This document shows positions 8,575 through 35,175 of a DNA stretch of 36,804 nt, piece after piece. The notes under the pieces are model-generated. The model made no database searches. It had not been told where the DNA came from and was given only the letters and a program-made list of their open reading frames with translations. The stretch is from Clostridia bacterium (GTDB taxonomy: Bacteria > Bacillota > Clostridia > Christensenellales > CAG-917). The position numbers and the translations under genes were made by a program. Every line of letters begins with the position of its first letter. Position 1 is the stretch's first letter. The stretch lies in NCBI GenBank assembly GCA_017500745.1, contig JAFVYE010000067.1, positions 1 to 36,804 of the forward strand, given 5' to 3'.

Positions 8575-8590
8575 TTTTATTGTTTTAGTG

Positions 8591-8617
8591 CAAAAGCAAG
8601 CCAAAATGACTTGCTTT
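8591..8617 (-). terminator. Terminator-like hairpin after glgP
   Basis: The minus strand reads AGCAAG, loop, CTTGCT, followed by TTTTG. It sits only about 15 nt before the GH13 start. Confidence 0.5.
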
Positions 8618-8645
8618 CATTGTGCATTTTGATTGTTCTTGTGGC

Positions 8646-11081: not shown

Positions 11082-11167
11082 AACCTTTCCTTTCTTCTCT
11101 CGCTTCCCCCGACCGAGAAAAAAGACGCTGTATTATTTATATCTTATTTTGTTTTGTGTTGGTGTGA

Positions 11168-12592
11168 TTAGATGCTTTTGTAGATTTCAAGATATTTGGT
11201 TGCACTTGCATCCCAGCCGTAGTCCCCAGACATTGCGTTTTCAACCACAGCATTCCAGTTGTCCTTGTCGTGATAGCATGCATATGCTCTCCATATTGCG
11301 TCCAACATGTCGTAGCAGTTGTAGGTTTTAAATGTGAATCCTTTGCCTGTCTTTTGCTCGGGATTGTATGCTTCAACCGTGTCTTTGAGGCCACCTGTTT
11401 CTCTGACAATAGGAATACTGCCATAAGTCATTGCAATCATTTGACTAAGTCCGCAGGGCTCAAACTTTGAAGGCATCAAGAACAAGTCGCTTGCGCCGTA
11501 AAGTTTGCTTGCAAGGTCACTGCTGAATTGGAGTATGCCTCTAAACTTGGTGGGATACTCCTCCTCAACTCTCTTGACAAGGTTTTCATACTTCCAATCT
11601 CCTGTGCCAAGGACAACCATTTGCACGTCTGCCGTCATGATTTCATCAATGACTGATGCCACAAGGTCAAGGCCTTTTTGTTCTGCAAGACGGGTGACCA
11701 TTGCAATCATAGGGCGGTTGTCATCATAGGACAAATTCAAAAGCTCACATATGGCTTTTTTGTTTTCCTTCTTTTTGTCTGCAACCGTGGACTTGTTGTA
11801 GTTGACAAAGAGTGCCTTGTCCTTTGAGGGATCATACAAATTGGTGTCAATGCCGTTGACCACTCCGTGAAGCTTGAAACTGCGCTCACTGAGAATGCCT
11901 TCAAGTCCATAGCTATAGAAGGGATCCATGATTTCGGTTGCGTAGGTTTCGCTGACCGTTGTGACAACGTTGCTACACTCAATCCCCCCCTTCATATAGT
12001 TGACGTATCCGCTGTTGAGCACAAGCTCAACCTTGTCCTCGGGCAAGCCAAGGACGTCTTGAATGAGGTCTGTGCCAAATCTGCCTTGAAACTCAATGTT
12101 GTGGATTGTAAACACCGTCTTAATGTTTTCATATCTTTCATCCTCACGATAGAACACGTCAAGGAACACAGGTGTCAATGCAGAGTGCCAATCGTTGGCG
12201 TGAAGCACGTCAGGATAGAAATCAATGAGCTTGAGGACTTCAAGCACTGCCTTTGAAAAGAAGGCAAATCTCTCGCCGTCATCAAAGTGTCCGTAGAGTC
12301 CTTTGCGCTTGAAATAATACTCGTTGTCAACAAAATAGTAGGTTATACCATCATAAACGGCCTCATAAACCCCACAATATTGTTTTCTCCAGCTGAGATT
12401 AATGTGTGTTGAGCCCACAAAGCGGAAGTTGTTGCTGAAGGTTGATTTGATCTCATCTTTGTAGAAAGGGAGGATGACTCTTGCATCGTGACCTTGCTTC
12501 AAAAACGATTTGGGCAGTGCTCCTGCCACGTCACCAAGACCGCCTGTTCTGATAAAGGGCATTGCCTCTGACGTCACAAACAAAATTTTCAT
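11168..12592 (-). CDS. glgA: Glycogen synthase (ADP-glucose type)
   Basis: MKILFVTSEAMPFIRTGGLGDV N-terminus (KxGGL motif), 474 aa, GT5 architecture. Confidence 0.95.
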   Translation of the reverse strand: MKILFVTSEAMPFIRTGGLGDVAGALPKSFLKQGHDARVILPFYKDEIKSTFSNNFRFVGSTHINLSWRKQYCGVYEAVYDGITYYFVDNEYYFKRKGLYGHFDDGERFAFFSKAVLEVLKLIDFYPDVLHANDWHSALTPVFLDVFYREDERYENIKTVFTIHNIEFQGRFGTDLIQDVLGLPEDKVELVLNSGYVNYMKGGIECSNVVTTVSETYATEIMDPFYSYGLEGILSERSFKLHGVVNGIDTNLYDPSKDKALFVNYNKSTVADKKKENKKAICELLNLSYDDNRPMIAMVTRLAEQKGLDLVASVIDEIMTADVQMVVLGTGDWKYENLVKRVEEEYPTKFRGILQFSSDLASKLYGASDLFLMPSKFEPCGLSQMIAMTYGSIPIVRETGGLKDTVEAYNPEQKTGKGFTFKTYNCYDMLDAIWRAYACYHDKDNWNAVVENAMSGDYGWDASATKYLEIYKSI

Positions 12593-12613
12593 ATTTGGCT
12601 CCTTTTATTTGCC

Positions 12614-13729
12614 TTAAATTACTTTGCCTTTGACGACAACCATAGGATAGGTGTCGTGACCGCTGAGATGACGTCCTTCCTTGATGATGACGTCCTTGTC
12701 TGTGATGGTGTAGTCAAGGGATGCGTTTTCCATGATGATGCCGTCCTCCATGACGATGGAGTTGCGCACCACCGCTCCCTTTCCAACCTTTACGCTACGG
12801 AACAAAATGCTGTTTTCAACCGTGCCTTCAATGACGCAACCATCTGCGATGATGCTGTTTTTGACAGATGCGTCTACGCCGTATCTTGCAGGCACGCTGT
12901 CCTTGACCTTGGTGAGAATTGTTGAATGCTTGTAGAACAAGCTCTCTCTGACTTTGGGGTCAAGCAGTTCCATGCTGTGTTTGAAATATGAAGGAATGCG
13001 ATCAATGACTGCCACGTATTCCTTAACCTCGTAGCTCATGACGTACAAGCTGTCAAGACTCTTTTGGAGGATATCCTTTTCAAAGTCGTCATAGCCGTAG
13101 GCGTATGCGTTGTCAACAAGAGAAATGAGCAAATCCTTCTTGACAAAGTACACGTTGAGGTTGCAAAGTTGACTGCCTTTGTCGGTGTCAACTGCCATGC
13201 GCATATCCTTGATTCGCTTGTTTTTATCTGTTGCAACAACAATTTTTCTGTTGTTGGGATCATCCACCTTGTAGGTGAGCACGGTCACGTCTGCGCCCTT
13301 TTCAATGTGGAATCTTTCAACCTCGTCAAAGTCAATGTTGAATGCGATGTTGGTGTTGGCAATGACAACGTACTCCTCGCTGGCTTCAAGCATAAATCCA
13401 CGGGTTGTATAGAGTGCCTCAATCTTGCCCTTGTACACGTCGTGGGAGCTGTTGAAAACGTAAGGAGGATAGACGGAGATACCGCCGTTTTTTCTGTTCA
13501 AATCCCAATCTCTACCTTGACGGATATGGTCCATCAATGAGTTGTAGTTGTTTTTGGTGATGATGCCAATTTTTGTGATGTTTGCGCTGACCAAGTTGGA
13601 GAGAGCAAAGTCAATAAGACGATATCTTCCACCAAAGGGCAATGATGCTGTGGTGCGGTGGATTGTAAGGTCGTTGAGATGACTTTCTGCATCAGCGGCA
13701 AAAAGAATTGCCATTGTGTTGTTTTTCAT
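12614..13729 (-). CDS. glgD: Glucose-1-phosphate adenylyltransferase regulatory subunit GlgD
   Basis: Paralog of GlgC (FGGRYRLIDFALSN, C-terminal left-handed beta-helix repeats). It lacks the GGxGxRL N-terminal motif and sits in the glgC-glgD-glgA order typical of Firmicutes. Confidence 0.85.
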   Translation of the reverse strand: MKNNTMAILFAADAESHLNDLTIHRTTASLPFGGRYRLIDFALSNLVSANITKIGIITKNNYNSLMDHIRQGRDWDLNRKNGGISVYPPYVFNSSHDVYKGKIEALYTTRGFMLEASEEYVVIANTNIAFNIDFDEVERFHIEKGADVTVLTYKVDDPNNRKIVVATDKNKRIKDMRMAVDTDKGSQLCNLNVYFVKKDLLISLVDNAYAYGYDDFEKDILQKSLDSLYVMSYEVKEYVAVIDRIPSYFKHSMELLDPKVRESLFYKHSTILTKVKDSVPARYGVDASVKNSIIADGCVIEGTVENSILFRSVKVGKGAVVRNSIVMEDGIIMENASLDYTITDKDVIIKEGRHLSGHDTYPMVVVKGKVI

Positions 13730-13738
13730 ATTTCCCTC

Positions 13739-14944
13739 CTAACCTATCATTTCATTTGCGCCGACGGTTGCGCCTTCGGCAAGCTCGTACTTGGGTGCAA
13801 TGACGCTGATCTTCCACTCGCCGGGTCTGCACTCATCAAGAGTTTCGCCAACCATAGCGTTTTTGCCAATCTTTGCATCCCAGCCGATGATTGAATATCT
13901 CACGTCTGCCCCTTCCTCAATGACTGCGCCGGGCATGACGATTGAGCCCTCAACGTAGGCGCCCTTGCCAATGTAAACCGATGATGAAATCACGCTGTCT
14001 TTGACTGTGCCATGGACTATTGTACCTTCACTGATCAAGGAGTGTTGCACCTTGCCTGTTGATGAAACAAAGTGAGGGGGCTCTGCCATGTTTCTTGCAT
14101 AGATCTTCCATCTGTCGTCATCAAGATTGAGTCCGCTTTCGGCGTTGTTCAAGATGTCCATGTTGGCTTCCCAAAGGGAAGAAATTGTGCCAACGTCCTT
14201 CCAATAGCCATCAAAGCGATAGGCAAACATCCTTTGACCATCGTTGAGCATGTTGGGGATGATGTTTTTGCCAAAGTCGTTTTCGCTGTTGGGATTCTCC
14301 TCATCTGCGATGAGATATTTGCGGAGCTTCTCCCAAGTGAAAATGTAGATGCCCATTGATGCCTTGTTGCTTCTGGGGTGCTTGGGTTTTTCCTCAAATT
14401 CCTCAATTTGATTGGTCTTGCCTTTGAGGTTTAAGATGCCAAAACGGCTTGCTTCCTCCATGGGCACTTCAAGGACGGCAATGGTGCAATCTGCTCTGTT
14501 CTCTTTGTGTTCACGGAGCATATCTGCGTAATCCATTTTGTAGATGTGATCGCCAGAAAGCAACACAACGTACTCTGGATCATAGTTGTCAATGAAATCA
14601 ATGTTTTGATAGATTGCGTTGGCGGTGCCCTTGTACCACTCACCAGACTTTGCTCTCATAAAGGGAGGCAAAATGTAGATGCCACCATTGAGACGGTCAA
14701 GGTCCCAAGGTTGACCGTTGCCTATGTATTGGTGCAGTTCAAAGGGACGATATTGTGTGAGGACACCTATGGTGTCTATACCGCTGTTGACACAGTTTGA
14801 CAACGGAAAGTCAATTATGCGGTACTTTGCGCCAAAAGGCACTGCAGGTTTTGCTACGTCATTGGTCAACACACCAAGTCGTGTGCCTTGACCGCCTGCA
14901 AGTAGCATTGCAATGCACTCCTTCTTTTTGCTGTTAATGCTCAT
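13739..14944 (-). CDS. glgC: Glucose-1-phosphate adenylyltransferase
   Basis: [28 protein letters not shown] and [10 protein letters not shown] motifs. 401 aa. Confidence 0.95.
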
Positions 14945-16835
14945 TTTTTTCCTCCTTATCCTCGGGTATCAAGATCATAACCGAGTTTTTGGGTATATTC
15001 ACCTTGATTGAATAGGGGTGTGAGTGGGAGGGTCTGCCCGTTGCTCTAAAGCTGGGACGGCGCTCCTCCTCTCCACCATACTTTTTGAGAGCAGAATAGA
15101 GCTCTGCTCTATAAGTTTTCTTTTCGGGCACGCCCATGACGTACTTGTTGCGCTCCACAGGGGAGAAGTTGACCACCACGATGACGTACTTGCCGTCTGC
15201 AGAGGAACGGATGTATGACACAACGTTGTTTTCATTGTCGTCAACAACTATCCACTTGAATCCATCATAAGTTGAGTCAAGTTGCCACAGCTCCTTGTGT
15301 TCAAGATAAAAGTGGTTCATGTCCTTGACAAATTTTCTGAATGAGTTGTGTCTTGGGTAGTCAAGCAAGAACCAATCAAGCTCTTGATTGTAGTTCCATT
15401 CAATGAATTGAGCAAACTCGTTGCCCATAAAGGACAACTTTTTGCCGGGATAAGTCATCTTGTAGCCGTAAAACGCTTTGAGTCCTTCAAACTTCTGGTC
15501 ATAGTCGCCGGGGGTTTTGTTGATCATACTGCACTTTCCGTGGACAACTTCATCGTGAGAGATGGGCAAAATGTAATTTTCGGAATATGCATACGTGATG
15601 CCAAAGGTCACAGCGTTGTGGTTGTCCTTGCGGAAGAAAGGATCAAGTGAAAGATATCGGAGATTGTCGTTCATCCAGCCCATATTCCACTTGAAATTGA
15701 AGCCCAAACCACCCATATACGGGGGCTTTGTCACCATGGGATATGCCGTTGACTCCTCTGCAATTGTGATTGCGCCTTGGTGCTTTGACAGAATTGCGCT
15801 GTTCATCTTTTGCAAAAACTCTTTGGCTTCAAGATTGTAGTTTCCGCCGTTTTTGTTGGGGACCCAATCCCCTTCGTTTCTGCCGTAGTCAAGATAGAGC
15901 ATGCTGGCAACTGCGTCACAACGGATGCCGTCAATGTGATAGAGGTCAAACCAGAACATCGCTGCAGAAATCAAAAAACTCTTGACTTCGTTTTTGCCAA
16001 AGTCATAGACCAAAGTGCCCCACTCTTTGTGCTCTCCCTTGCGAGGATCTGCATATTCGTATAGAGGTGTGCCGTCAAACTTGGCAAGGCCGTGTTGATC
16101 ACGAGGGAAGTGTGCAAGAACCCAGTCAAGAATTACGCCTATTCCTGAGCGGTGACAGCGGTCAATAAACTCCATAAGATCGTCTGGTGTGCCAAAGCGT
16201 GAAGTGGGTGCAAACATGCCCGTGCATTGATATCCCCAACTGCCGTCAAAGGGGTACTCTGTCAAAGGCATAAATTCAATGTGAGTGTAGCCCATCTTTT
16301 TGACGTAAGGGATGAGCTCGTCTGCAAGTGCTTTGTATGAGTAGTAGTTGCCGTCAGGATAGCGCTTCCAACTGCCTGCATGAACTTCATAGATGTTCAT
16401 GGGAGAGCCATAAGGATTGTGGCTGGCACGGTTTTTCATCCACTTGCCGTCCTTCCAATGATGCTTTGTCACGTCATACAGCTTTGATGCGTTGGCAGGT
16501 GCTGTTTCAAAATGGGTTGCATAGGGGTCACACTTGAAAACCGTGTTGCCCTCTTGGTCGGTCACAGCAAATTTGTAATTTGCATATTGTTCAAGACCAG
16601 GGACAAAAGTGCGCCACACGCCGTCATACTCCTTGAGCATGGGTGTGGCACTTGCATCCCAATTGTTGAAATCGCCAACTACTGATACGCAGGTTGCGTT
16701 GGGCGCCCAAACAGCAAAACTCCACCCCTCAACTCCGTCCTGTGTTTCGGGATAGGGGCAAAACATTTTGTACGCCTCGTAGTTGGTGCCTTCATGAAAA
16801 AGGTATGTTTGAAAACCATCTTTTGTTCTGGACAT
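14934..16835 (-). CDS. glgB: 1,4-alpha-glucan branching enzyme
   Basis: 633 aa, CBM48-type N-terminus, GH13 regions ([36 protein letters not shown]). Overlaps glgC by 11 nt. Confidence 0.95.
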
Positions 16836-17845: not shown

Positions 17846-17921
17846 CGCTTGTGCACGAAATTGATTTGTTTTGTCATACTCTCACTCCGCTCTGCATAAT
17901 GTTTACAAAACGGAGGCGATT

Positions 17922-19379
17922 ATGTTTGGATATGAAAAATTTGATACAATTTCAACCCGCTTTTTGACACCTGTCACTCGGGTTGTTGAATTTGTGCCCA
18001 GAGGCATTGACGGGCCTTACAAAGTTTTGTCGCTGTCTGCCTCGGTGGTGCCTGTTGCAACCAGCGTTGGAGACGGATATATTGACGTCAACGGACGGGT
18101 GGACTTCAAGCTTGTTTACGTTGATCTTAACGGAGGTGTAAATGGCGCAAGCTACAACGCAGACTTTGCCGTGCGCATTGATGGCGACCTTCGTTCAAGC
18201 GACCGCTGTGACGTTGCATTGAGTGTTGTTGAGTGTCAAGCAAAAACCGCAAGCGCTCTGACTTTGTCTGCCGTGTTGAAGGTGGAGGGCATTGTCACCA
18301 GCGTCACAACGATTGAACCATTGGTGGAGGCAGAAAACAGCTTTTCAACCAGCAAGGTTTTGACACTTCCAACCCCTGCTTATAATATGACTCACGGCTT
18401 TTTTGTTGATGAGGAAACATCGGTCAAAGACGTTGACAAAATACTGTCACTTGACACAAAGTGCGGTTTGACAAGTCAAAAAGTGATGGATAAACGCCTT
18501 GTTTTGACATTTGACACAACTGCTATTGTCACATATCTTGAGGAGGGTGACATACACACAGCCACCTTCAACGTGACCAGCGAGGAGTGCATTGACCGTG
18601 ATGACGTTGACCAAAACGACCACGTGCTTGCTTTGCCATACGTCAAAAATGCTCGCATCGTTCTCCATGGTGTCACAGGAGAAAACGTCATCAAGTTTGA
18701 GGGAGAAATTGGTGTGAATATATCTGCAAATCGCCTTGTTGAAGCAGAGGTAATTGAGGACGTGTTTTCACTTTCATACGAAACGAACGTAACCAAAAAC
18801 AGCTTTGACTCGGTTGCGTATTCTGGGGAGAATTTTTACACCGAAAGGATATTTGGACAGGTGGATTTGCCCTCTCCTTGCGCCCTTGTTGCCCTGCCTA
18901 CGTCAAGGATTGTGGTGGCAAAAACAACCACCGAAAATGGGCTCTCAATTGAGGGCGTTGCCTACTGCGACATCATATATTCAACCGATGACGGACTGTC
19001 AGCGGTGTGTGCAGAAGTGCCCTTTTCATTGCCCATTGACTGCAATTTTGATGGAGATATAATCCCCTATGCCACAATCCTTGACACCGCTGTAAAAATC
19101 AAGGGGGACGTGGCAGAGATCAATATGTTGATTGAAGTGCAGACAGCCCTTTACGGCCACTACAACGGCTCATATATTGCAGAGGTTGAATTGGGCGCAG
19201 AAAAGGAGGTCAACCGCTCTGGATTGTCAATGTACGTGGCAGATGAGGGAGATGGTCTTTGGGAGGTGTGCAAAGCACTCACAGCCACTCCAAAAGAGAT
19301 CAACGAGCAAAACCCCAATCTCAACTTTCCTCTTCGCTTTGGCGAAAAGGTGCTGTACTTCCGCAGGATAGCCAAGTGA
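17922..19379 (+). CDS. DUF3794/SPOCS-like repeat protein with C-terminal LysM domain
   Basis: GGAGG (17912-17916) lies 5 nt before the ATG at 17922. The C-terminus MYVADEGDGLWEVCKALTATPKEINEQNPNLNFPLRFGEKVLYF fits the LysM pattern. The DUF3794 assignment is from recollection of the family architecture only. Confidence 0.6.
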   Translation: MFGYEKFDTISTRFLTPVTRVVEFVPRGIDGPYKVLSLSASVVPVATSVGDGYIDVNGRVDFKLVYVDLNGGVNGASYNADFAVRIDGDLRSSDRCDVALSVVECQAKTASALTLSAVLKVEGIVTSVTTIEPLVEAENSFSTSKVLTLPTPAYNMTHGFFVDEETSVKDVDKILSLDTKCGLTSQKVMDKRLVLTFDTTAIVTYLEEGDIHTATFNVTSEECIDRDDVDQNDHVLALPYVKNARIVLHGVTGENVIKFEGEIGVNISANRLVEAEVIEDVFSLSYETNVTKNSFDSVAYSGENFYTERIFGQVDLPSPCALVALPTSRIVVAKTTTENGLSIEGVAYCDIIYSTDDGLSAVCAEVPFSLPIDCNFDGDIIPYATILDTAVKIKGDVAEINMLIEVQTALYGHYNGSYIAEVELGAEKEVNRSGLSMYVADEGDGLWEVCKALTATPKEINEQNPNLNFPLRFGEKVLYFRRIAK

Positions 19380-19469: not shown

Positions 19470-22204
19470 TTAGTTATTTTCTTTGAGGGCCTTTTTTTCT
19501 GCCTTACGCTTTTCAACAAAGTTGGTGACAACCTTTGACACTTCAACAAAGGGGATTACAGTTGCGCCAAGTGCCATTGCAATGAAGAATTCCTTTGCGT
19601 CAATTGCTGTAAAGTCAAATGCTGTGTTGAGGCCGGGGGTGTAGATGACAAGGACGGTTGCAAGCAATGAGAATGCAAATGCGCCCCACATAAACCAATT
19701 TTGCTTTTTGAGCATGCTCTTGCTGAAGATTGAGTGGTTGATTGATCTTGCGTTGAATGCGTGGAACATCTCTGTCATTGACAAGGTCAAGAAAGCCATT
19801 GTCATGCCGTGGCCTGTGTCGTGAGCAAATGCTTCAAAGGTCATGGGCTCCCCTGCAAGATAGTGTCCAATAAAGAATGATGCAAGAGTCAAAAGTCCAA
19901 TAAACACGCCTTGGATGATGATGTTGACCCCAACGCCACCTGCAAAGATGCCTTCCTTTTCATTTCTGGGAGCACGGCGCATAAGGTCTGCTTCTGCCGT
20001 TTCTGTGCCAAGTGCAAGTGCAGGGAAAGTGTCTGTGATGAGGTTGATCCAAAGCAGGTGCATGGGCTTCAAGAGAGTGAAGCCACACATTGTTGCAATA
20101 AACACAGAAACCACTTCTGCAAGGTTGGATGCAAGGAGGAATTGAATTGCTTTGCGGATGTTGTCGTAGATGCGTCTGCCCTCTCCAACTGCGGTGACGA
20201 TTGTTGCAAAGTTGTCATCTTGGAGCACCATGTCTGCTGCGCCCTTTGTGACGTCTGTGCCTGTGATGCCCATGCCAATGCCGATGTCTGCTGACTTGAT
20301 GGAAGGTGCGTCATTGACGCCGTCCCCTGTCATTGCAGTAATCATGCCACGCTTCTTCCAAGTGTTGACAATGCGGACCTTGTGTTCAGGTTGAACACGT
20401 GCATACACAGAAAACTCCACGATTCTTTCATAAAATTCCTCATCACTCATCTCTGCCATTTCTGCGCCTGTAATTGCTTGTGATGCGTCTTGGATGATGC
20501 CAAGTTGCTTTGCAATTGCCACAGCTGTGTCAATGTGGTCGCCTGTGATCATGACTGCACGGATGCCTGCTGTCTTACACTCTGCAATTGCTGCTTGAAC
20601 TTCGGGACGGACAGGGTCAATCATGCCTGTGAGGCCAAGGAAGATGAGGTCCTTTTCAATGTCTTCGGGATTGACACTATCAGGAATTGCGTTGAGGGGC
20701 TTGTATGCTGCAGCAAGGACACGAAGTGCTTCGTTTGCCATTGCCTTGTTTGCACCAAGGATGTCTGTTCTGATGTCATCTGTGAGTTCAACCACTTGAC
20801 CGTTGATCTTTGCGTGGGTGCAACACTTCAAAAGTTCATCGGGAGCGCCCTTTGTGAATTGAACGTATGCGCCGTTGCCGTCATCGTGGATGGTTGACAT
20901 ACGCTTGCGCATGCTGTCAAAAGGTGCTTCCGCCACACGAGGATAGGTTTTGTCAAGGTCGGTTTTGTTTTGATTTTCCTTGTATGCAAAGTTGACAAGA
21001 GCACACTCTGTGGGCTCGCCAACTGCGTCAAAGGTTTCGGGGTCAAGAGTTGCGTCACTTGCTTGTGCCATTGCTCTTGCAATGAGAGCAACGTCATCGC
21101 CATAGGTGTCAACAACGGTCATCTTGTTTTGAGTGAGGGTGCCTGTCTTGTCAGAGCAGATGATTTGGGTGCAACCCAAGGTTTCAACTGCAGTAAGACG
21201 TTTGACAACTGCTTTTTTCTTTGCCATCTTTGTCATGCCCATTGAAAGCACGATTGTGACAACGGTTGCAAGGCCCTCTGGGATTGCGGCAACTGCCAAC
21301 GACACAGCGATGATAAAGCTGTCAAGGATGATTTCAAGTGCGCTGTTGCCAACAAGATTGTTGCGTTCCATGATGAGCTTGAATGCAAAATGAACACACA
21401 AATGCCAAGGACTGCAAAGCTCAAAATCTTTGAAAGCTTGTCAAGCTTCTTTTGAAGGGGAGTTGTTTCCTCTTTGGTTTGTGCAAGGACGTCTGCAATT
21501 TTGCCCATTTCGGTTTGCATGCCTGTTGCAACAACAACTGCCTTTGCTCTGCCGTAGACAATGGTGCTTCCCATATAGACCATATTCTTTCTGTCGCCAA
21601 GGGGAACGTCTTTGCCATCCTCTGCTGTGAGAGTGTCAACTTCCTTCTCGCTGGGCACAGACTCTCCTGTCAAAGCTGCCTCTTCTGCCTTTAAGGATGC
21701 AGATTCAATAAGACGGCAGTCTGCAGGCACAGAGTCCCCTGCTTCAAGGATGACTATATCGCCAACAACCAAGTCCTCGTTTTTGATGTGCTTGATGACA
21801 CCATCACGGATGACTTTACACGTTGATGCGGTCATCTCTTTCAAGGCCTCAATTGCCTTTTCGGCTCTGCCCTCTTGCACAACGCCAAGAACTGCGTTCA
21901 AGAGAACAACACCAATGATGATGAAGAACTCTGCAAGCTCCGTTGTGTCAAAGTGTCCCTTGCCTGTCATCACGGGGATGAGTGTTGTGATGAGACTGAT
22001 GAGCGCTGCGATGATCAAAACGATGATCATAGGGTTGACAAGTTGCATGAAGAATCTTTGGACCATTGAGATCTTTTTGCCTTCTGCCAGCTTGTTTTTG
22101 CCGTTTTGTTCAAGGCGAGCGTCTGCTTCGGATTGTGACAATCCGTTGTCGCAGGACTTTACTTCTTCCAAGACAGCGTTGCTGTCAAAAAGATAGTGTT
22201 TCAT
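19470..22204 (-). pseudogene. P2-type (Ca2+/Mn2+-like) cation-transporting ATPase, interrupted by a 1-nt frameshift
   Basis: Two overlapping ORFs (22204-21233 and 21401-19470) together encode one ATPase: N-terminal cation-ATPase domain, PEGL (AAIPEGLATV), DKTGTLT, TGDHIDTA, GDGVNDAPS. The frames join sensibly (…GICVFI|FAFKLIMERNN…) only if one base is added in the A4/T4 run at 21387-21390. Confidence 0.85.
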
Positions 22205-23038: not shown

Positions 23039-24121
23039 TTATTGTTTGTTTATGATTTTTCCCTCTTTCACTTCAAAGAGTTTTGCCCCATCTCCGTCAA
23101 ACTCTGTGCAAGTGAGGATTGTTTGAACTCCCTTTGTGGCTTCAAGCAAGATATCACGCCGTGTTTTGTCAAGCTCACTCAACACGTCGTCAAGGAGAAG
23201 GACGGGGGTTTCGCCTGTTTCTTGCTTGTACATTTCAACCTCTCCAAGCTTCATTGCAAGAGCTATAGTGCGCTGTTGTCCTTGAGAGGCAAATCGCCTT
23301 GCGTCAATGCCGTCAATTTCAATCTTGATGTCGTCACGATGAGGGCCTACGGTGCTATATCCAAGCTCCTTATCCTTTGCCCTTGATGCCAAAAGTGCGT
23401 CCTCAAGATTGCGCCTTATATCCCCTTCTGTTTTGACTGCGGTTTCATATGACAGCATCAGATTTTCCTTGCCAGAGCTGATTTTTCTGTGGCTTTGGCT
23501 TGCAAACTTGTTGAGTTCATTGACGTACTCCATACGCTTGCGGATTATGGTTGCGCCGTGCTCGGCAAGCCCAATATCCCACACGTCAAGCATGTCGTCA
23601 AGATTGTCTGCGTGCTTGCTCTCCTTCAAAAGATTGTTCTTTTGCTTCAACGTCTTGTTGTATTTTTGCAATGCAGTAAAATAGCTCTTTTGTTGTTGAG
23701 ATAGCCCAACGTCAAGAAAGCCCCTTCTCTCTGCGGGAGATTCCTTTACAAGCTTGAGTTCATCCGGCGAGAAGAAAACCACCCCAAGCACACCAAGCAG
23801 TTCTCCTGCTCTTGTCACGGGGATTCCGTCAATTGCCACTTTCTTTTTGCCAACCTCATCTATGAGGAGCAATATTGTGTGTTTGCGGAATTTTTTTTCA
23901 ACAGTAAGTGCCACCTTTGCCCTTGATGCGCCCATGCGGATAAGCTCTTTATCCTTGGTTGTGCGAGGGCTTCTAAGCAATGAGCAAACGTAAACAGACT
24001 CAAGCATATTGGTCTTTCCGCTGGCGTTTTTTCCATAAAGAACGTTGAGCCCACCGTCAAAATTGACTTGTTGGCTCTCGTAATTGCGGAAATTTGAAAG
24101 TGTAAGACCGATGATTTTCAT
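23039..24121 (-). CDS. recF: DNA replication and repair protein RecF
   Basis: Walker A GKNASGKTNMLE at the N-terminus, SMC-like signature FASQGQQRT, Walker B LLLDDVLSELD. 360 aa. Confidence 0.9.
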   Translation of the reverse strand: MKIIGLTLSNFRNYESQQVNFDGGLNVLYGKNASGKTNMLESVYVCSLLRSPRTTKDKELIRMGASRAKVALTVEKKFRKHTILLLIDEVGKKKVAIDGIPVTRAGELLGVLGVVFFSPDELKLVKESPAERRGFLDVGLSQQQKSYFTALQKYNKTLKQKNNLLKESKHADNLDDMLDVWDIGLAEHGATIIRKRMEYVNELNKFASQSHRKISSGKENLMLSYETAVKTEGDIRRNLEDALLASRAKDKELGYSTVGPHRDDIKIEIDGIDARRFASQGQQRTIALAMKLGEVEMYKQETGETPVLLLDDVLSELDKTRRDILLEATKGVQTILTCTEFDGDGAKLFEVKEGKIINKQ

Positions 24122-26500: not shown

Positions 26501-27601
26501 TTAGCCAATAACTCTGAGAGGAAGGATGAGATAGAGCCAGTTGTCTTGTTCGCCCTTGATAATGCCGGGGGCTGTTGATGAAGTGAAGTTCAATGTGACA
26601 AAAGGATCTTGGATTGCCTTCATACACTCGCTGATATACTTGCTGTTGAAGCCGATTGTAAGGTCCTTGCCTTTGAGTCCGATGGTGACTTTTTCATTGA
26701 TTTCGCCCTCTTCGCTGTGTGCGTTCAATGAAATTGAATCCTCTTTTATTTCCATCTTGACGTATGCTTTCTTTTCAGAGCGATTGATGAGGGCAACTCT
26801 TTCAATGCTGTTTTCAAATTGCTTTTTGTCAATGGTCACTTCGGTTGTAAAGAGGTCGGGGATGATCTTTTCATAGTTGATATAGTCCTCTGCGATGAGG
26901 CGTGAAACCATCTTTGTGTGGAAGAGGTCAACCATGATATAGCTTCTGTCAATGTAGACGGTCAAAGTTTCGTTTTCGTCATCAATGAGTGAGCAGAGCT
27001 CGTTCATGCTCTTTGCGGGCACAACAAGTTTGTCAATGATGCCGTTGTTTTGAATGGGCATTCTTGAAAGTGCAAGACGATAGCCGTCTGAAGCAACCCC
27101 TTCAAGCTCTGTTTCTTTGATGTTGAGGCAGATGCCACGGAGTGAAGGACGTGCTTCATCCATTGCAACGTTGAATTTGACCTTGCTGATGATTTCTTTA
27201 AGGTCTTTTTTGAGGATGATGAAGGAGTGCTCCTTTTCAACCTCCTTGAACACGGGATATTCATCTGCGTTGTAGCAATTGATAAACACCTCGCTGTCAA
27301 GATATTTCACAGACAATTTGTTTTGTGCGGTGCCGTCAAGCTCAATTTCTTCATCGCCAATACGCTTTGCGTAGTCTGCAAAGAGTTTGCCAGGGACAAC
27401 CACTTCGCCCTCAATGAGAACTTCTGCATTGACCTTCTTTTCAATGGCAAGTTCCAAGTCGGTTGCAAAAAGGGTGATGACGTCACCGATTGCGGTGATT
27501 TTGACACATTCCAAAATTGGATTGCTTCTCTTAATAGGCAATGCCTTTACAACTTTTTGAAGAGCATCTGCAAGCTCGTTTCCGTTCAAAATAACTTTCA
27601 T
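26501..27601 (-). CDS. dnaN: DNA polymerase III beta sliding clamp
   Basis: 366 aa, three-domain clamp pattern (LFATDLELAIE, GVASDGYRLA, C-terminal LILPLRV). Confidence 0.95.
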   Translation of the reverse strand: MKVILNGNELADALQKVVKALPIKRSNPILECVKITAIGDVITLFATDLELAIEKKVNAEVLIEGEVVVPGKLFADYAKRIGDEEIELDGTAQNKLSVKYLDSEVFINCYNADEYPVFKEVEKEHSFIILKKDLKEIISKVKFNVAMDEARPSLRGICLNIKETELEGVASDGYRLALSRMPIQNNGIIDKLVVPAKSMNELCSLIDDENETLTVYIDRSYIMVDLFHTKMVSRLIAEDYINYEKIIPDLFTTEVTIDKKQFENSIERVALINRSEKKAYVKMEIKEDSISLNAHSEEGEINEKVTIGLKGKDLTIGFNSKYISECMKAIQDPFVTLNFTSSTAPGIIKGEQDNWLYLILPLRVIG

Positions 27602-27979
27602 TTTTTCGCCTGTTTATTTTAATATTTTATTTTTATTTATTATACCATATATAAGCAATGTTGACAAGTGGAAAAGTCCAAAACTCCCCAACAAAAGCCA
27701 AAAAAGTGTTGTTTATCCCCATCAAAAACATCAGCAAAATAAGCAAAAACACAAGTGTGTTATGTTGACAACTTTTTGTGGATTTCCCTATTTTGTCCCC
27801 AAGTTTAAAAGGGTTGTTCACAACGTCCTATCTATAGGGCGACAATGACCAATATATTGCGACAAAATTTGCAAGTCAAAAAATAATAAAAAAAAAAGAT
27901 GTGAAACAAATTGTGAAACTTATTGCGATTGAATTTTTTTTGTGTTATTTTATTTATATACCCCCAAAGGAGAATGGCT
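27602..27979. other. Candidate oriC-type region between divergent dnaN and parB
   Basis: AT-rich block 27611-27656. DnaA-box-like 9-mers: TTATCCCCA (27713-27721, 1 mismatch), TGTGGATTT (27777-27785, 2 mismatches), TTGTTCACA (27814-27822, 2 mismatches). A10 tract at 27889-27898. No perfect box. Confidence 0.3.
27639..27667 (-). promoter_or_regulatory. Sigma-A promoter of dnaN
   Basis: On the minus strand: TTGTCA (27667-27662), 17 nt, TATAAT (27644-27639). This gives an AT-rich leader of about 30 nt. Confidence 0.55.
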
Positions 27980-28858
27980 ATGGCAGAAAAAGGCGCAAGC
28001 AAGTTTAATGCTCTTTACACAGACCATGAGGAAAACGTTAAGGTTGAAATTGCAGGAGTCAACGCAATTGACGTAGACATCACTCTCATTGACAGAAACC
28101 CTGCTCAACCTCGTAAGACTTTCAACGAAGAGTCCCTTCGTGAAATGGCAACTTCTGTTGCAACCTACGGTGTTTTGCAACCTCTCCTCGTCACAGAGGA
28201 AAAGGGCAGATATCTTATCATCGCAGGCGAACGCCGTTTTAGAGCTGCATATATGGCAGGGCTCAAAAAAGTGCCCGTAATCGTGAGAGAACTCACAAGC
28301 CAACAAATTGCAGAAATCTCTCTCATTGAAAACTTGCACCGTGAGGACCTCAACGCAATTGAAGCTGCAGAGGGCATGCGTGAGCTTATGGAAAACCACA
28401 ATCTCACCCAAGAAGGTGTGGCAGGTCGCATTGGCAAATCACGCCCCTACGTCACCAACACACTTCGCCTCCTTCAACTGCCCAAGGAAGTCACAGACAT
28501 GGTCAAGGAAGGACGCCTCTCTCCCGGCCATGCAAGAGCGCTCATCTCCATTGACGACAAAGAGTATCTCATCCAACTTGCAAAGCAGGCCTGTGACAGT
28601 CACCTTTCAGTCCGTGATCTTGAAACAAAAGTTCGTCTTTACTTCACAAGAAAAACAATCCCAGTCGGCCCCAGAAAACAACCTCTCCCCATTGAGCTTA
28701 AAGAGATGGTTGGCGATATGAAGCGTGTGTTTGCAACAAAGGTTAAACTTCTTGGCAACGAAAACAAAGGACGCATCTGCATTGACTATTTCAACAAGGA
28801 CGATCTTGACAGAATCCACGAAATCATTCAACGCCTCAAATACGAAGAAAAACTCTAA
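27980..28858 (+). CDS. parB: ParB/Spo0J-family partition protein
   Basis: AGGAGA (27968-27973) lies 6 nt before the ATG at 27980. ParB motifs present: LQPLLV, GERRFRAA, IENLHREDLN, and the HTH LTQEGVAGRIGKSRPYVTNTLRLL. It could formally be a Noc paralog. Confidence 0.85.
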   Translation: MAEKGASKFNALYTDHEENVKVEIAGVNAIDVDITLIDRNPAQPRKTFNEESLREMATSVATYGVLQPLLVTEEKGRYLIIAGERRFRAAYMAGLKKVPVIVRELTSQQIAEISLIENLHREDLNAIEAAEGMRELMENHNLTQEGVAGRIGKSRPYVTNTLRLLQLPKEVTDMVKEGRLSPGHARALISIDDKEYLIQLAKQACDSHLSVRDLETKVRLYFTRKTIPVGPRKQPLPIELKEMVGDMKRVFATKVKLLGNENKGRICIDYFNKDDLDRIHEIIQRLKYEEKL

Positions 28859-31973: not shown

Positions 31974-32070
31974 CAAAAAGCAACCAACTGCACAGCTTGA
32001 CACAAAGGATTGAAAAAAACAGCAACCAAAAACCAACAAAACATAAACAGACAAATATAAACAAAAATTT

Positions 32071-32095
32071 TGACTATATACAAAGTATATAGTCA
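32071..32095 (+). promoter_or_regulatory. Perfect 11-bp inverted repeat immediately upstream of luxS
   Basis: TGACTATATAC-AAA-GTATATAGTCA ends 10 nt before the luxS ATG. No SD is visible. Confidence 0.5.
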
Positions 32096-32105
32096 AACTA
32101 CAATT

Positions 32106-32534
32106 ATGGAAAGAATCACATCATTCAACATTGATCACAACGTGCTGACTCCAGGCATATACCTCAACCGTGTGGATGGCAACGTGTTTACATATGACCT
32201 TCGTTTCAAAGCACCAAACAAAGGGGATTATCTCCACACAGCAGGCATGCACACCGTGGAACATCTCTTTGCAACGGTTGTCCGCAACAGCCCCTACAAA
32301 GACAAGGTTGTTTATTTTGGACCTATGGGATGCAGAACTGGTTTTTATCTCCTACTCTTTGACACCCCTGACATCAACGATGCAAAGCGCATCGTCACGG
32401 AGTGTGTTGAAAAATGTCTTGAACTCAACTCAATCCCCGGATCCAAAAAGATTGAGTGTGGCAACTACCGCTCACACAACCTTGCAGATGCCAAAAAGGA
32501 GCTGACAGCATATCTTGGAGTCCTCAAAAGATAA
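32106..32534 (+). CDS. luxS: S-ribosylhomocysteine lyase
   Basis: The metal-binding HTVEH motif and the GPMGCRTGFY block typical of LuxS. The start is trimmed to MERITSF. Confidence 0.9.
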   Translation: MERITSFNIDHNVLTPGIYLNRVDGNVFTYDLRFKAPNKGDYLHTAGMHTVEHLFATVVRNSPYKDKVVYFGPMGCRTGFYLLLFDTPDINDAKRIVTECVEKCLELNSIPGSKKIECGNYRSHNLADAKKELTAYLGVLKR

Positions 32535-32600
32535 CAATCCAAACAAAGACAAATCAAACAATTTTCTATAAATTGCAAAAACAAAAATATAGAAAAATCA

Positions 32601-32626
32601 AAAGCCGAGCAAAAGCTCGGTTTTAT
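32601..32626 (+). terminator. Intrinsic terminator after luxS
   Basis: AGCCGAGC (32603-32610), loop AAAA, GCTCGG (32615-32620), then TTTTATTATT. Confidence 0.7.
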
Positions 32627-32630
32627 TATT

Positions 32631-32663
32631 GCCAAAACATCGCCAAAACATTGCCAAAATCAC
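32631..32663 (+). repeat. Tandem array A: three copies of an 11-nt unit, GCCAAAACAT(N)
   Basis: Copies start at 32631, 32642 and 32653. Confidence 0.8.
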
Positions 32664-32664
32664 A

Positions 32665-32777
32665 CCCCCTAAAATACTAACTCCCCAAAATACTATTCCC
32701 CTAAAATACTATTCCCCTAAAATACTAACTCCCTATAATACTAATTCCCCCAAATACTAACTCCCCAAAATACAATC
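32665..32777 (+). repeat. Tandem array B: seven copies of a 15-18 nt unit, CCCC(T)AAAATACTAAYT
   Basis: Units start at 32665, 32683, 32698, 32714, 32731, 32747 and 32763. The line 32701-32760 contains no G at all. Confidence 0.9.
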
Positions 32778-32844
32778 AAACTCTCTGTTGTATAAATCAG
32801 CACTCTACCACACAAATAGACCACACCTTTGCTACGTCACGTAA

Positions 32845-33150
32845 CCTACAGCCATAACATACTCCCACAACCCCTAAATACCCTATCAGCCATAAACACC
32901 CTATCATCTATAAACACTCTATTAGCTATAACACGCTCTATCAGCTATACACACTTTCTCAGTCCTAAACACTCTCACAGTTCTACATACTCCAACAACC
33001 CCTAATACCCTCTCAGCCACAACACGCTCTCAGCTACAACACGCTCTCAGCCATAACACGTTCACAACCCCTAAAACCCTATCAACCATAACACACTCTA
33101 TCAGCTAATAAACCACTCTCACAGCTCTACATACTCCCACAACTCACCCC
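32845..33150 (+). repeat. Tandem array C: about 13 degenerate copies of a roughly 17-nt unit, CTMTCAGCYAYAACACG, interspersed with CCCACAACCCCTAAATA-type elements
   Basis: Example run: CTCTCAGCCACAACACG CTCTCAGCTACAACACG CTCTCAGCCATAACACG at 33010-33060. The interspersed element recurs near 32863, 32991, 33063 and 33135, which indicates a higher-order repeat. Confidence 0.8.
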
Positions 33151-33174
33151 GCCCCACAACCATTAGTGCCCCAC

Positions 33175-33254
33175 AACTCAACGCACTCACGCAACTCAAC
33201 GCAACTGAACGCACTCACGCAACTCAACGCACTCACGCAACTCAACGAATTCAC
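33175..33254 (+). repeat. Tandem array D: about four copies of an 18-nt unit, AACTCAACGC+ACTCACGC
   Basis: Alternating 10-nt and 8-nt subunits can be read directly at 33175-33248. Confidence 0.85.
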
Positions 33255-33485
33255 ATAATCCCTAACAACAACCAAAAACAACAAAATCTACTATTCTAAT
33301 TGATCCCACCACTTTCAACGTATAATCAAATTCATTTTCTATAAAACAATAAAAACAAATATATAAAAAAAACAAAATAGAAACCATAAATAACAATCAA
33401 GCATTTATAAATACGGTCATAAGAATAAACAAAAGTGCAAATGTAAAATTTTCTATTCAAGAGGAAACCAAACAAACAAAATAAA

Positions 33486-33501
33486 TGTTTTACGTGAAAC
33501 A
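33486..33501. promoter_or_regulatory. parS-like site (1 mismatch)
   Basis: TGTTTTACGTGAAACA compared with the canonical TGTTNCACGTGAAACA. Confidence 0.7.
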
Positions 33502-33900
33502 TTTTACTATGTTTTGTAATTTGGCATTTAATAGAAGAATGAAATGAGCCAAACAAAACCGCCAAATTCTGCTCAAAATCCTGTCAAAAACGATGCGAAA
33601 AAAGGCGAATAAACCCTCATAAAAAGGAAAAATAAAACAATAGAAAAACTGCATAAAGCTCAACAGAGGTTTAAAAAGCAAAACTGGTCAATAACAATAG
33701 CAAGTACGTGCAAAAAAAACTTAACAAATTTAAAGGAAAAGTTAGCCAAAAATGTTTCACAAAGGAATTTGCGGGAAAAACTCCTCAAAAATAAGCAGGG
33801 ATGTGGCCAAAGCCGACCAATTTGTCAAGAAATCCACAAAAATTATGCATTTTCAAGCCGAAAAACCAGCAAAAGAAACGCAAAAATCAAATAAAACAAA

Positions 33901-33916
33901 GGATTCACGAGAAACA
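33901..33916. promoter_or_regulatory. Degenerate parS-like site (3 mismatches)
   Basis: GGATTCACGAGAAACA. Confidence 0.3.
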
Positions 33917-33950
33917 TCTCCGAAGACCTTAAAATCGTCCAAAAAATATA

Positions 33951-33966
33951 TGTTTCACGTGGAACA
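33951..33966. promoter_or_regulatory. parS site, exact match to the consensus
   Basis: TGTTTCACGTGGAACA is the exact reverse complement of TGTTCCACGTGAAACA. Confidence 0.85.
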
Positions 33967-33983
33967 ATGGTCGGATGGGTGTG

Positions 33984-33999
33984 TGTTTCATGTGAAACA
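33984..33999. promoter_or_regulatory. parS-like site (1 mismatch)
   Basis: TGTTTCATGTGAAACA, 18 bp from the perfect site. Confidence 0.7.
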
Positions 34000-34015
34000 A
34001 AAACGCCTTAAAAGT

Positions 34016-34067
34016 GCCCAAAAATAGCCAAAAACAGCCATTTTTGATGGTTTTTGGGCTATTTTTG
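34016..34067. repeat. Imperfect inverted repeat at the A-rich to T-rich switch point
   Basis: CAAAAATAGCCAAAAAC (34019-34035) against the reverse complement of GTTTTTGGGCTATTTTTG (34050-34067). There is one indel and a 14-nt spacer. Confidence 0.7.
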
Positions 34068-34221
34068 ACCTATGAAAAATAATTTTTCGGCTTTTCCTCA
34101 TCTAATTTTTTGGCCTCAAAAATCGGTCTTTCCCCATTGAAATTTGGGGGTCTTTTGTTTCGCAAAAATACTAATAAAAATTATTAGTTTCACAATTATT
34201 TTATCTTATAATAAAAAAACG

Positions 34222-34285
34222 GTTTTTTAGGCGTTTTTTAGGCATATTTTAGGTGTTTATTAGGTTTTTTTGGGCTGTTTTCAGC
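34222..34285 (+). repeat. Tandem array E: 5-6 copies of an 11-nt unit, GTTTTTTAGGC, roughly the reverse complement of array A
   Basis: Units start at 34222, 34233, 34244, 34255, 34266 and 34276. Confidence 0.75.
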
Positions 34286-34517
34286 ATGTGTGTAGTGTTT
34301 TTTTACTTAAATTTATGCTTTATTTGTGGTATTTTACAAGATTTAATTTTTATTTTTTATCTGACTTTTGCTCTATTTTAACCTTTTTTATTATATTTTT
34401 GGCATTCTTACTGCGATATTGATCAATTCTGTATTACCACGTTGATGTAAATGCAACGGTCCCTTGCAGATGAGCCCAGCAATGTTACTTTATTGATTAC
34501 GCATAAACAAAATAACA

Positions 34518-34546
34518 TTGATATTTTGAGGGTTGTTTGATATAAT
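34518..34546 (+). promoter_or_regulatory. Near-consensus sigma-A promoter
   Basis: TTGATA (34518-34523), 17 nt, TG-extended TATAAT (34541-34546). It lies about 185 nt upstream of the kinase ATG. Confidence 0.6.
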
Positions 34547-34640
34547 CAAGCCGGTGTCACATAAAACAATGGCTTTGTCCATGTAAATTTTGGCTGCTTT
34601 TGCCAATGATAAATGTGGTAAAAAGACAGATTGTTTTGTG

Positions 34641-34663
34641 TTTACTTAACTGAGTTAAGTAAA
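34641..34663. repeat. Palindrome copy 1: TTTACTTAAC-TGA-GTTAAGTAAA
   Basis: Perfect 10-bp arms. The arms plus the trailing AG are identical to the copy at 35154-35176. Confidence 0.85.
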
Positions 34664-34731
34664 AGTTCTTTGGCAATTATGATTCTTGACGATTTTGCGT
34701 CATTATAAGACTGTTTTTGGGGTTGAATGCT

Positions 34732-35175
34732 ATGTTGATTGCAATCATTGGTGAAAACTGCGTTGGCAAATCTACGCTTGCAAAGGAATTGGCCAGTCAT
34801 TTTCCGTCCAAAATATTTGTGGGCAAGGACTTTTTGCGCCTTGAAAGAAATCCGTCCGTCGCAAAGCAGACCTTTCAAAAAATGTTGGCACAATCGGTTT
34901 GTGGCGAGAACTTGATTTTTGTCATCTCTGAAAAAGAGCATATTGACCTTTTGCCGGAGGGCGCACTTAGGATTTTGCTCACTGCCGATCTTGACGTCAT
35001 CAAAGAGAGATTTAAGGATCGCATGAGGGGATTTTTGCCTCCCCCTGTGGAGAAAATGCTTGAACGCAACCACGGCACTTTTGACAGCGTAAAGTGTGAT
35101 TTTTGTCTTGAAAGTGGCAAATATGATATAAATAGCGTTTTAGAATCTTTAAATTTACTTAACTTTGTTAAGTAA
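34732..35175 (+). CDS. Small P-loop kinase-like protein (cytidylate-kinase-like/AAA fold)
   Basis: Walker A IIGENCVGKST at the N-terminus, about 147 aa. The ATG at 34732 is preferred over the TTG at 34717. Confidence 0.6.
   Translation: MLIAIIGENCVGKSTLAKELASHFPSKIFVGKDFLRLERNPSVAKQTFQKMLAQSVCGENLIFVISEKEHIDLLPEGALRILLTADLDVIKERFKDRMRGFLPPPVEKMLERNHGTFDSVKCDFCLESGKYDINSVLESLNLLNFVK

Follow-up and report, generated by a model that had tools for sequence, protein, structure and literature searches.

A conserved parS cluster as the probable origin-proximal chromosomal centromere of an uncultured Christensenellales-like gut Clostridia bacterium

The window analysed here (36.8 kb, the whole 36,804-nucleotide stretch of contig JAFVYE010000067.1) is part of the chromosomal origin region of a Clostridia bacterium and carries chromosomal housekeeping genes (Table 1). 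Its subject of interest is a cluster of parS sites, the palindromes read by ParB proteins, which lies entirely within a 2.1-kb gap that is free of open reading frames (ORFs) and poor in promoters, 5 kb from parB and within 10 kb of dnaA, dnaN, and recF (23–27.6 kb), and is thus origin-proximal. We found no ORF of at least 120 amino acids between 32535 and 34641, in line with the non-coding location given in a first-pass annotation made from the sequence letters. No transfer RNA was found in the gap, nothing in it reached the Rfam gathering threshold, and a permissive search returned sub-threshold noise that included U4 and rliD. A terminator follows luxS at 32605–32620.

Table 1. Features of the parS gap and its surroundings, with positions counted from the first letter of the window.
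Feature	Position	Strand	Description
recF	23039–24121	-	
dnaA	24356–25729	-	
vanZ	between dnaA and dnaN		
dnaN	26501–27601	-	
dnaN-parB spacer	27602–27900 (boxes scanned to 27973)		Likely oriC or at least DnaA-box cluster
Two direct half-parS GTGAAAC	27901–27919	+	12 bp apart, ~55–70 bp 5' of the parB start; candidate autoregulatory operator
parB	27974–28858	+	294 amino acids, chromosomal ParB CTPase family (Pfam ParB_N, HTH_ParB, ParB_C); presumed reader of the sites
rsmG, MFS transporter, PNP-family phosphorylase	between parB and luxS, in that order		
luxS	32070–32534	+	
ORF-free, promoter-poor gap	32535–34716		luxS to the small AAA-kinase-like gene; contains the entire parS cluster
Tandem-repeat arrays	32631–33247	+	Left arm of the gap; G-poor (C+A-rich), units of 11, 16, 17, and 18/28 bp
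parS-1	33486–33501		TGTTTTACGTGAAACA; solitary; 1 mismatch to TGTTNCACGTGAAACA
Half-parS	33753–33760	+	TGTTTCAC; candidate by sequence match
Decayed parS	33901–33916		GGATTCACGAGAAACA; 3 mismatches
parS-A	33951–33966		TGTTTCACGTGGAACA; first of the conserved pair; minus-strand reading TGTTCCACGTGAAACA, 0 mismatches
parS-B	33984–33999		TGTTTCATGTGAAACA; second of the conserved pair; 1 mismatch; 33 bp start-to-start from parS-A
Phased A-tracts, then phased T-tracts	33997–34067	+	Likely intrinsically curved
Imperfect A/T-tract inverted repeat	34019–34034 / 34052–34067		Window clade
AAAAATAATTTTT element	34075–34087	+	Kept in most of 24 genomes
Two CTTTCnCC-type boxes	34091–34099, 34128–34135 (region 34091–34145)	+	Each followed by an AAATTT(T) tract
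Half-parS-like box	34156–34163	+	TGTTTCGC
Half-parS GTTTCAC	34187–34193	+	Last box of the conserved module
Small AAA-kinase-like gene	34717–35175	+	Beyond the gap

Three parS sites with zero or one mismatch to the consensus occur within 514 bp, and no other site of this quality was found in the 36.8 kb. These three sites had been reported by the first-pass annotation, the one at 33951 as an exact reverse complement of the consensus, together with a three-mismatch copy at 33901, half-sites at 33753, 34156, and 34187, and no parS inside parB; we recovered every sequence at its position, the minus-strand reading at 33951 matched without a mismatch, and our consensus scan likewise found none within parB (27974–28858). 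With up to three mismatches allowed, the window had 10 strand-matches, compared to 2.29 ± 1.82 in shuffled sequences, and none of 100 shuffles reached 10. By arithmetic (14 specified bases, at most one mismatch), ~0.006 sites would be expected per window, compared to the three observed. The heptamer GTTTCAC/GTGAAAC was present in nine copies, seven of which were in the ORF-free gap and in the region upstream of parB.

We compared the window to 31 related loci (L003–L033) encoding ParB proteins 70–87% identical to that of the window, which come from uncultured gut metagenome-assembled genomes (MAGs) named Clostridia bacterium, Christensenella sp., or Christensenellales. Counts over 24 genomes refer to the window and 23 of these relatives, and the window clade comprises the six closest genomes (the window and L003–L007). 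Absence of the sites from close relatives, which had been named at first pass as a finding that would speak against the cluster, was not what we observed, given that 23 of the 31 loci had three to five parS within 0.3–3 kb, inside ORF-free gaps of 1–3.8 kb. Loci without the pair formed by parS-A and parS-B were mostly on contigs ending before the region; the other two were L024, which is rearranged, and L013, in which only 2.1 kb follow luxS. The pair was spaced 32 or 33 bp start-to-start in 24/24 genomes, with an unconserved spacer sequence of 16–17 bp, and the parS-A core was invariant in all of them. parS-1 and ~30–50 bp of its flank were kept in L003–L007 in either orientation, while the equivalent of the 33901 copy was a two-mismatch parS in L003 and L005 (CGTTTCATGTGAAACA) and absent in L004, L006, and L007; the window copy is a decayed parS.

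In the six closest genomes, similarity across the gap survived only near parS-1 and in the block 33880–34265, and conservation of the cluster between diverged flanks was found at the 23 related loci. The cluster always followed PNP and luxS, both on the plus strand, whereas the far side of the cluster differed between genomes, as did the directions in which parB, dnaA, dnaN, and recF are read, and the gene downstream was an AAA kinase, a 2'-5' ligase-like gene, a convergent trhA, or another gene depending on the relative. These observations bear on whether the sites could be chance palindromes, or a plasmid or mobile-element centromere integrated in the chromosome. Plasmid centromeres are also tight repeat clusters, and the left arm of the gap is rich in repeats; however, three sites are far more than the expectation by chance given above, the locus is syntenic among housekeeping genes in 23 genomes, no integrase, transposase, or other mobile-element genes were found nearby, and a blastn search of the ~300-bp core of the conserved sequence around the pair against 72,556 plasmids gave no similarity. 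We consider this explanation effectively refuted, and the plasmid or prophage centromere class (P1 parS, F sopC type) was rejected on the basis of the plasmid search and the housekeeping synteny.

The presumed reader of the sites is a chromosomal ParB. Its gene starts at the ATG at 27974. The exact protein with this start was present on two short metagenome contigs only, and a look-up using the mechanical TTG start gave no match. The protein carries the GERRFRA motif for binding of cytidine triphosphate (CTP), and its closest solved structures are chromosomal ParBs of Myxococcus, Thermus, Bacillus, and Caulobacter, all scoring above Noc, with 84 bits over the DNA-binding domain for the B. subtilis structure 6SDK. 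Aligned to Caulobacter ParB (6S6H), its specificity positions are R173/T179/Q184/G201; R173 and G201, the two parS-contacting residues, are ParB-type, and none of the four positions matches the Noc residues Q/K/K/R (roles of these residues in PMC7383237). A Noc identity was rejected, given that the NCBIfam Noc model scored 220 bits, below its 315-bit cut-off, and that these residues are not Noc-type; the Noc-binding site ATTTCCCGGGAAAT had no match in the window at up to three mismatches. The window thus encodes a cognate ParB with both the CTP motif and parS-type specificity residues.

The genetic context of parB separates the window clade from all other relatives. While parA (soj) was directly upstream of parB in 26/26 loci outside this clade (L008–L033, at ~9200–9990), in the order rsmG-parA-parB, tblastn searches for ParA found none in the window or in L003–L007, and a complete ParABS system, with adjacent ParA and the ParB N-terminal motif, was not found within the 20–37 kb covered per genome. 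ParA-linked ParBs had the ParA-stimulating motif KGGLGxKG at their N-terminus, in contrast to EKG---ASK in the window clade. In place of parA, the window clade has a non-coding region upstream of parB with a pair of GTGAAAC half-sites, and such pairs, at 12–13-bp spacing, were detected in 6/6 genomes in which parB is not preceded by parA and were absent where parA precedes it. These half-sites may form a ParB autoregulatory operator. A promoter read by hand in this region (TTGCGA-17-TATTTT, 27923–27951) scored 8/12 and was not called by the sigma-70 scan, so that a parB promoter here is only weakly indicated. Given that all more distant relatives keep rsmG-parA-parB, any loss of parA would be recent and clade-specific; the window clade has apparently undergone such a loss, and a parA may be located elsewhere in the genome. 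The pattern resembles a recent change to a ParB that works as an orphan and may regulate its own gene, a situation also found in streptococci.

Beside the pair, a module of ~250 bp was kept in the 24 genomes on one fixed side, facing away from luxS, and together with the pair it forms a conserved unit of ~270 bp. In the window, A4+ tracts start at positions -1, 10, 20, and 30 from the end of parS-B, followed by T4+ tracts at 41, 51, and 62; across the 24 genomes, A4+ tracts start at ~0, 10, and 20 (30) bp and T4+ tracts at ~31/41, 52, and 62 bp, with a phase of ~10 bp in nearly all genomes. Tract columns were invariant and intervening bases variable in the alignment of the window clade. Farther from the pair, the CTTTCnCC boxes had the consensus CTTTCTCC...AAATTTT and CTTTCACCCAAATTTTT in relatives, the box at 34156 was invariant in the window clade and read ATGTTTC(G/T)C or ATGTTACAC in other clades, and GTTTCAC at 34187 was invariant in 23/24 genomes. 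The four half-parS-like boxes of the module share one orientation. The right-hand half-sites at 34156 and 34187, which had been listed at first pass, are therefore not only present but real conserved elements, as they are kept across the module of relatives.

In most clades other than the window clade (L008–L033), the stretch from parS-B to the boxes contained a CCCACT-N4-AGTGGG hairpin bordered by an A-run and a T-run; the A/T-tract inverted repeat at 34019–34067 takes its place in the window clade. This hairpin resembles a bidirectional terminator, and its 4-nt loop was AAAC or GTTT, the two orientations of the same sequence, in different genomes. A terminator-like element and ~250 bp of non-coding sequence conserved across 24 genomes could indicate that a riboregulator or a gene for a small non-coding RNA happens to lie beside the parS sites, and compensatory TA for CG was found at two stem positions, in three sequences each. 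However, RNAalifold on the module of the 24 genomes recovered only trivial parS-to-parS pairing (covariation term -0.54), there was no Rfam match at gathering score, the sigma-70 scan called no promoter in the module, and the hairpin is missing from the window clade. Given that conservation is concentrated in short boxes and tract phasing, a DNA-level signature, we regard an RNA gene at this position as very improbable.

A regulatory role at the DNA level deserves somewhat more weight, though it is still unlikely: the palindromes and half-sites could be mainly transcriptional operators at which ParB or another helix-turn-helix protein acts on neighbouring genes in a KorB-like manner, with segregation being secondary. 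The conserved half-parS pair just 5' of parB in the ParA-less clade is operator-like, Pseudomonas aeruginosa ParB represses genes beside intergenic parS and binds half-parS heptamers (PMC7022226, PMC5961200), and a strong promoter-like site is located at 34518–34546, downstream of the module. On the other hand, ~750 bp separate the pair from the next start codon downstream and ~1.4 kb separate it from luxS, sigma-70-like sites were depleted in the gap rather than enriched (4 compared to 8.3 ± 2.5 in shuffles), and the downstream gene varies among relatives while the module is constant. For this last reason, the module is not the promoter of a conserved gene either.

Strand composition changes at the pair in a way reminiscent of replication origins. 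C-runs exceeded G-runs to the left of the pair in 20/24 genomes and G-runs exceeded C-runs to its right in 21/24, so that the strand running 5' to 3' away from the pair was G-run- and T-rich on both sides in 20–21/24 genomes, and AT skew flipped sign at the pair in essentially all of them. In the window, the GC skew of the left arm was -0.63 in 1-kb windows and reached -0.8 in 250-bp windows, and this skew is kept in relatives although the repeats of the left arm are not. Third codon positions of coding strands have an excess of C in this clade (-0.21), so that PNP and luxS, both on the plus strand, account for part of the skew to the left of the pair.

The gap might then be or contain the replication origin, with the parS pair as an integral oriC element and the phased A/T module as an unwinding or architectural region. 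Besides the flip of GC skew, AT skew, and G-/C-run asymmetry exactly at the pair, with origin-like sign, several observations favour this idea: a regression of ORF GC skew, corrected for gene strand, placed the best switch point at the pair (a small effect, with the right side too thinly sampled to be relied on), tandem DnaA-box-like motifs were located 60–70 bp from the pair in four to five relatives, the module and right flank are AT-rich with phased tracts, and origins in gut bacteria are not always at dnaA (PMC10197239). However, the gap showed no excess of DnaA-box-like motifs (2, 3, and 2 observed compared to 4.8, 1.8, and 3.1 expected), their density across loci was 0.61 per kb around the pair compared to 0.42 per kb in the remainder, which was not called an enrichment, gene orientation does not change at the pair (25 genes on the plus strand and 31 on the minus strand on its right side), and the per-locus skew difference beyond ±2 kb was weak, being positive in 13/18 loci with 1–4 ORFs each. 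The dnaN-parB spacer, by contrast, had seven DnaA-box-like 9-mers with at most two mismatches, compared to 1.6 ± 1.2 in shuffles, as well as an AT-rich 13-bp tandem repeat at 27614–27643, and the corresponding spacer of L007 had four DnaA boxes with at most one mismatch. A DnaA-box cluster with an AT-rich element was thus found in this spacer, ~6 kb from the parS pair, and not in the gap; the spacer is the best oriC candidate, and an origin within the gap seems improbable, although the skew flip at the pair leaves it some weight.

We therefore favour a centromere reading, to which we assign a probability of roughly 0.85: the cluster would serve this uncultured, Christensenellales-like bacterium of the gut Clostridia as its chromosomal parS locus close to the origin. 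This reading is supported by the sequence match to parS, the improbability of such matches by chance, the cognate ParB, the proximity to the origin, and the conservation of sites, spacing, and module. The three sites are very probably real ParB-loading sites, and we infer that ParB binds them and, by analogy to described systems, that clamp loading and SMC recruitment take place at the cluster (PMC7053999, PMC8367383, PMC7333895). In the mechanism we propose, ParB dimers would grip the 16-bp palindromes via their helix-turn-helix domains and, with CTP bound, close into clamps that slide onto the adjoining gene-free, promoter-poor DNA, with the gap behind the luxS terminator serving as an unobstructed zone for loading and spreading. 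As clamps slide off, the sites could be reloaded repeatedly. The resulting ParB-DNA complex would mark the origin region and recruit SMC-ScpAB and, in relatives keeping parA, would also drive ParA-dependent segregation. Given that a pair spacing of 32–33 bp corresponds to about three helical turns, the two sites would face roughly one side of the helix, and this spacing together with the 10-bp phasing of tracts would put sites and bend in helical register, consistent with nucleation that is cooperative or has a defined geometry. A role in this process may also fall to the bend and the half-sites, and ParB could plausibly bind the half-site boxes, as P. aeruginosa ParB binds half-sites (PMC5961200).

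Several points weigh against the centromere reading or narrow it. The identification draws on sequence, context, and conservation, and the roles proposed for spacing, bend, and half-site boxes are read from conservation. Our scan covered 36.8 kb, and the cluster may not be the sole or dominant one in the genome. Classic ParABS partition may not operate in the window clade, because no parA adjoins parB there. The CTTTCnCC boxes bear only a loose resemblance to parS and may be targets of a different protein. Finally, the mirror symmetry of the skew flip around the pair is not accounted for by a centromere model.

The P1 plasmid centromere is a composite in which parS and the motifs box A and box B are placed about a bend induced by IHF. 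With full and partial motifs arranged asymmetrically around bent DNA, it is the closest analogy for the pair, bend, and boxes described here, but it differs in that there is no sequence similarity, the setting here is chromosomal, the bend would be intrinsic, and binding of the boxes by ParB is only predicted. Extending this analogy, the ~270-bp unit could be a structured centromere core that assembles a defined higher-order complex of ParB, or of ParB and a partner, as in P1 parS/IHF, rather than a set of independent loading sites; the mirror asymmetry of G-runs would then be a selected property of a ParB/SMC loading zone, and the unit would have outlasted the loss of parA. We offer this as a speculative extension, with odds clearly against it. 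If it were true, this lineage would represent a natural experiment in which a ParABS centromere was repurposed for ParA-independent, SMC-based segregation.

B. subtilis has ~10 single parS sites dispersed across the fifth of its chromosome nearest the origin, most of them intragenic, including one in spo0J. The window shares with its Spo0J(ParB)/parS system the consensus TGTTNCACGTGAAACA, the ParB family, the GERRxRA motif, and the origin-proximal location of sites, and the expected outputs are the same, namely clamp loading, spreading, and SMC recruitment (PMC7333895, PMC7053999, PMC10681803). It differs in having at least three sites in 0.5 kb of non-coding DNA, a pair with fixed spacing, no site in parB, and neither soj nor noc beside parB. 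The tight intergenic clustering emphasized in the first-pass annotation and its contrast to B. subtilis are real, but the implication that such a cluster is unusual or plasmid-like was not supported: the scattered, intragenic layout of B. subtilis is one arrangement among many. Caulobacter, Pseudomonas (parS1–4), Streptomyces, and Corynebacterium also have several parS within a few kb of the origin, with one cluster organizing the origin domain (PMC5815017, PMC4368675, PMC7022226). Hi-C of the OMM12 gut bacteria, including Clostridia, showed most parS sites to be clustered (PMC10197239), and clustering near the origin is the recognized norm, although the reason for it is open (PMC7333895, PMC7022226). 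The ParA-less ParB-parS-SMC systems of Streptococcus pneumoniae and Staphylococcus aureus (PMC7022226, PMC7333895) resemble the window clade in their orphan parB, few origin-proximal parS, and presumed action through SMC, with the difference that absence of parA in the window clade applies to the 20–37 kb available per genome. P. aeruginosa ParB binds the same heptamer GTTTCAC, which suggests half-site occupancy without spreading (PMC5961200, PMC7022226); while its half-sites are scattered by the hundreds, the window has nine, most of them at the cluster and upstream of parB and at conserved positions.

Tight pairs were also common in metagenomes. A scan for two parS separated by 2–32 intervening bases (less than 47 bp apart) retrieved at least 120 loci (L034–L153) from soil, marine, and gut samples. 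Among the matches listed, the modal spacing was 38–39 bp, with a minor mode at 25–27 bp and 32–33 bp in six loci; many clusters were just upstream of parA, and several, with three to five sites, were in unrelated high-GC lineages. Given that tight parS clusters are common in bacteria, our finding is largely ordinary. Compared to these metagenome clusters, those of the window and its relatives stand apart by their 32–33-bp spacing, their distance of 4–10 kb from parB, their position next to PNP/luxS, and the additional conserved module. Some of the loci among the matches listed held 10–29 parS sites, and L075 had a module resembling that of the window (CTTTCTCCGTGTAATTTT, phased T-tracts).

The cluster does not overturn current understanding, but it provides a confident centromere and origin landmark for an uncultured and abundant group of gut Clostridia, which could be used for orienting MAGs, for replication-rate (peak-to-trough) estimates, and for reading metaHi-C maps. 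Pair spacing, intrinsic bend, and half-sites were held over at least 30% ParB divergence, which bears on the question of why parS sites cluster (PMC7333895). Moreover, a sub-clade that keeps its centromere without parA would represent a recent transition from ParABS to ParB only, for which sister genomes offer a comparison.

The left arm of the gap has four adjacent tandem-repeat arrays on a nearly G-free plus strand, for example CCCCTAAAATACTAAC repeated 6.7 times, with regularly spaced G4–5 runs on the minus strand. These repeats are specific to the window genome; in L004 the skew is the same but repeats are missing, and in L030 (CCCTAT)x12 is located beside a parS. Because the repeats are absent from relatives, we rejected a functional iteron array. 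Contigs of L006, L017, L019, L021, and L022 ended inside the parS gap or within ~1.5 kb of it, which suggests that assemblies were broken by skewed or repetitive DNA or by repeat copies elsewhere in the genome. The minus-strand series dnaN-vanZ-dnaA-recF, next to a parB that diverges from dnaN, is an atypical gene order, and the varying orientations of dnaA, dnaN, recF, and parB among clades of relatives imply repeated inversions around the origin. Elsewhere in the window, a P-type cation ATPase was split into two overlapping minus-strand ORFs (21233–22204 and 19470–21401), which could reflect a frameshift, a pseudogene, or an assembly error. The regions 6829–16835 and 17871–19379 contain a glycogen metabolism cluster (amylase, glycogen phosphorylase, glgA, glgD/glgC-like, and glgB) and a protein with SipL/SPOCS domain, the latter suggesting a spore-forming lineage, and a tRNA-Asn gene is located at 136–211.

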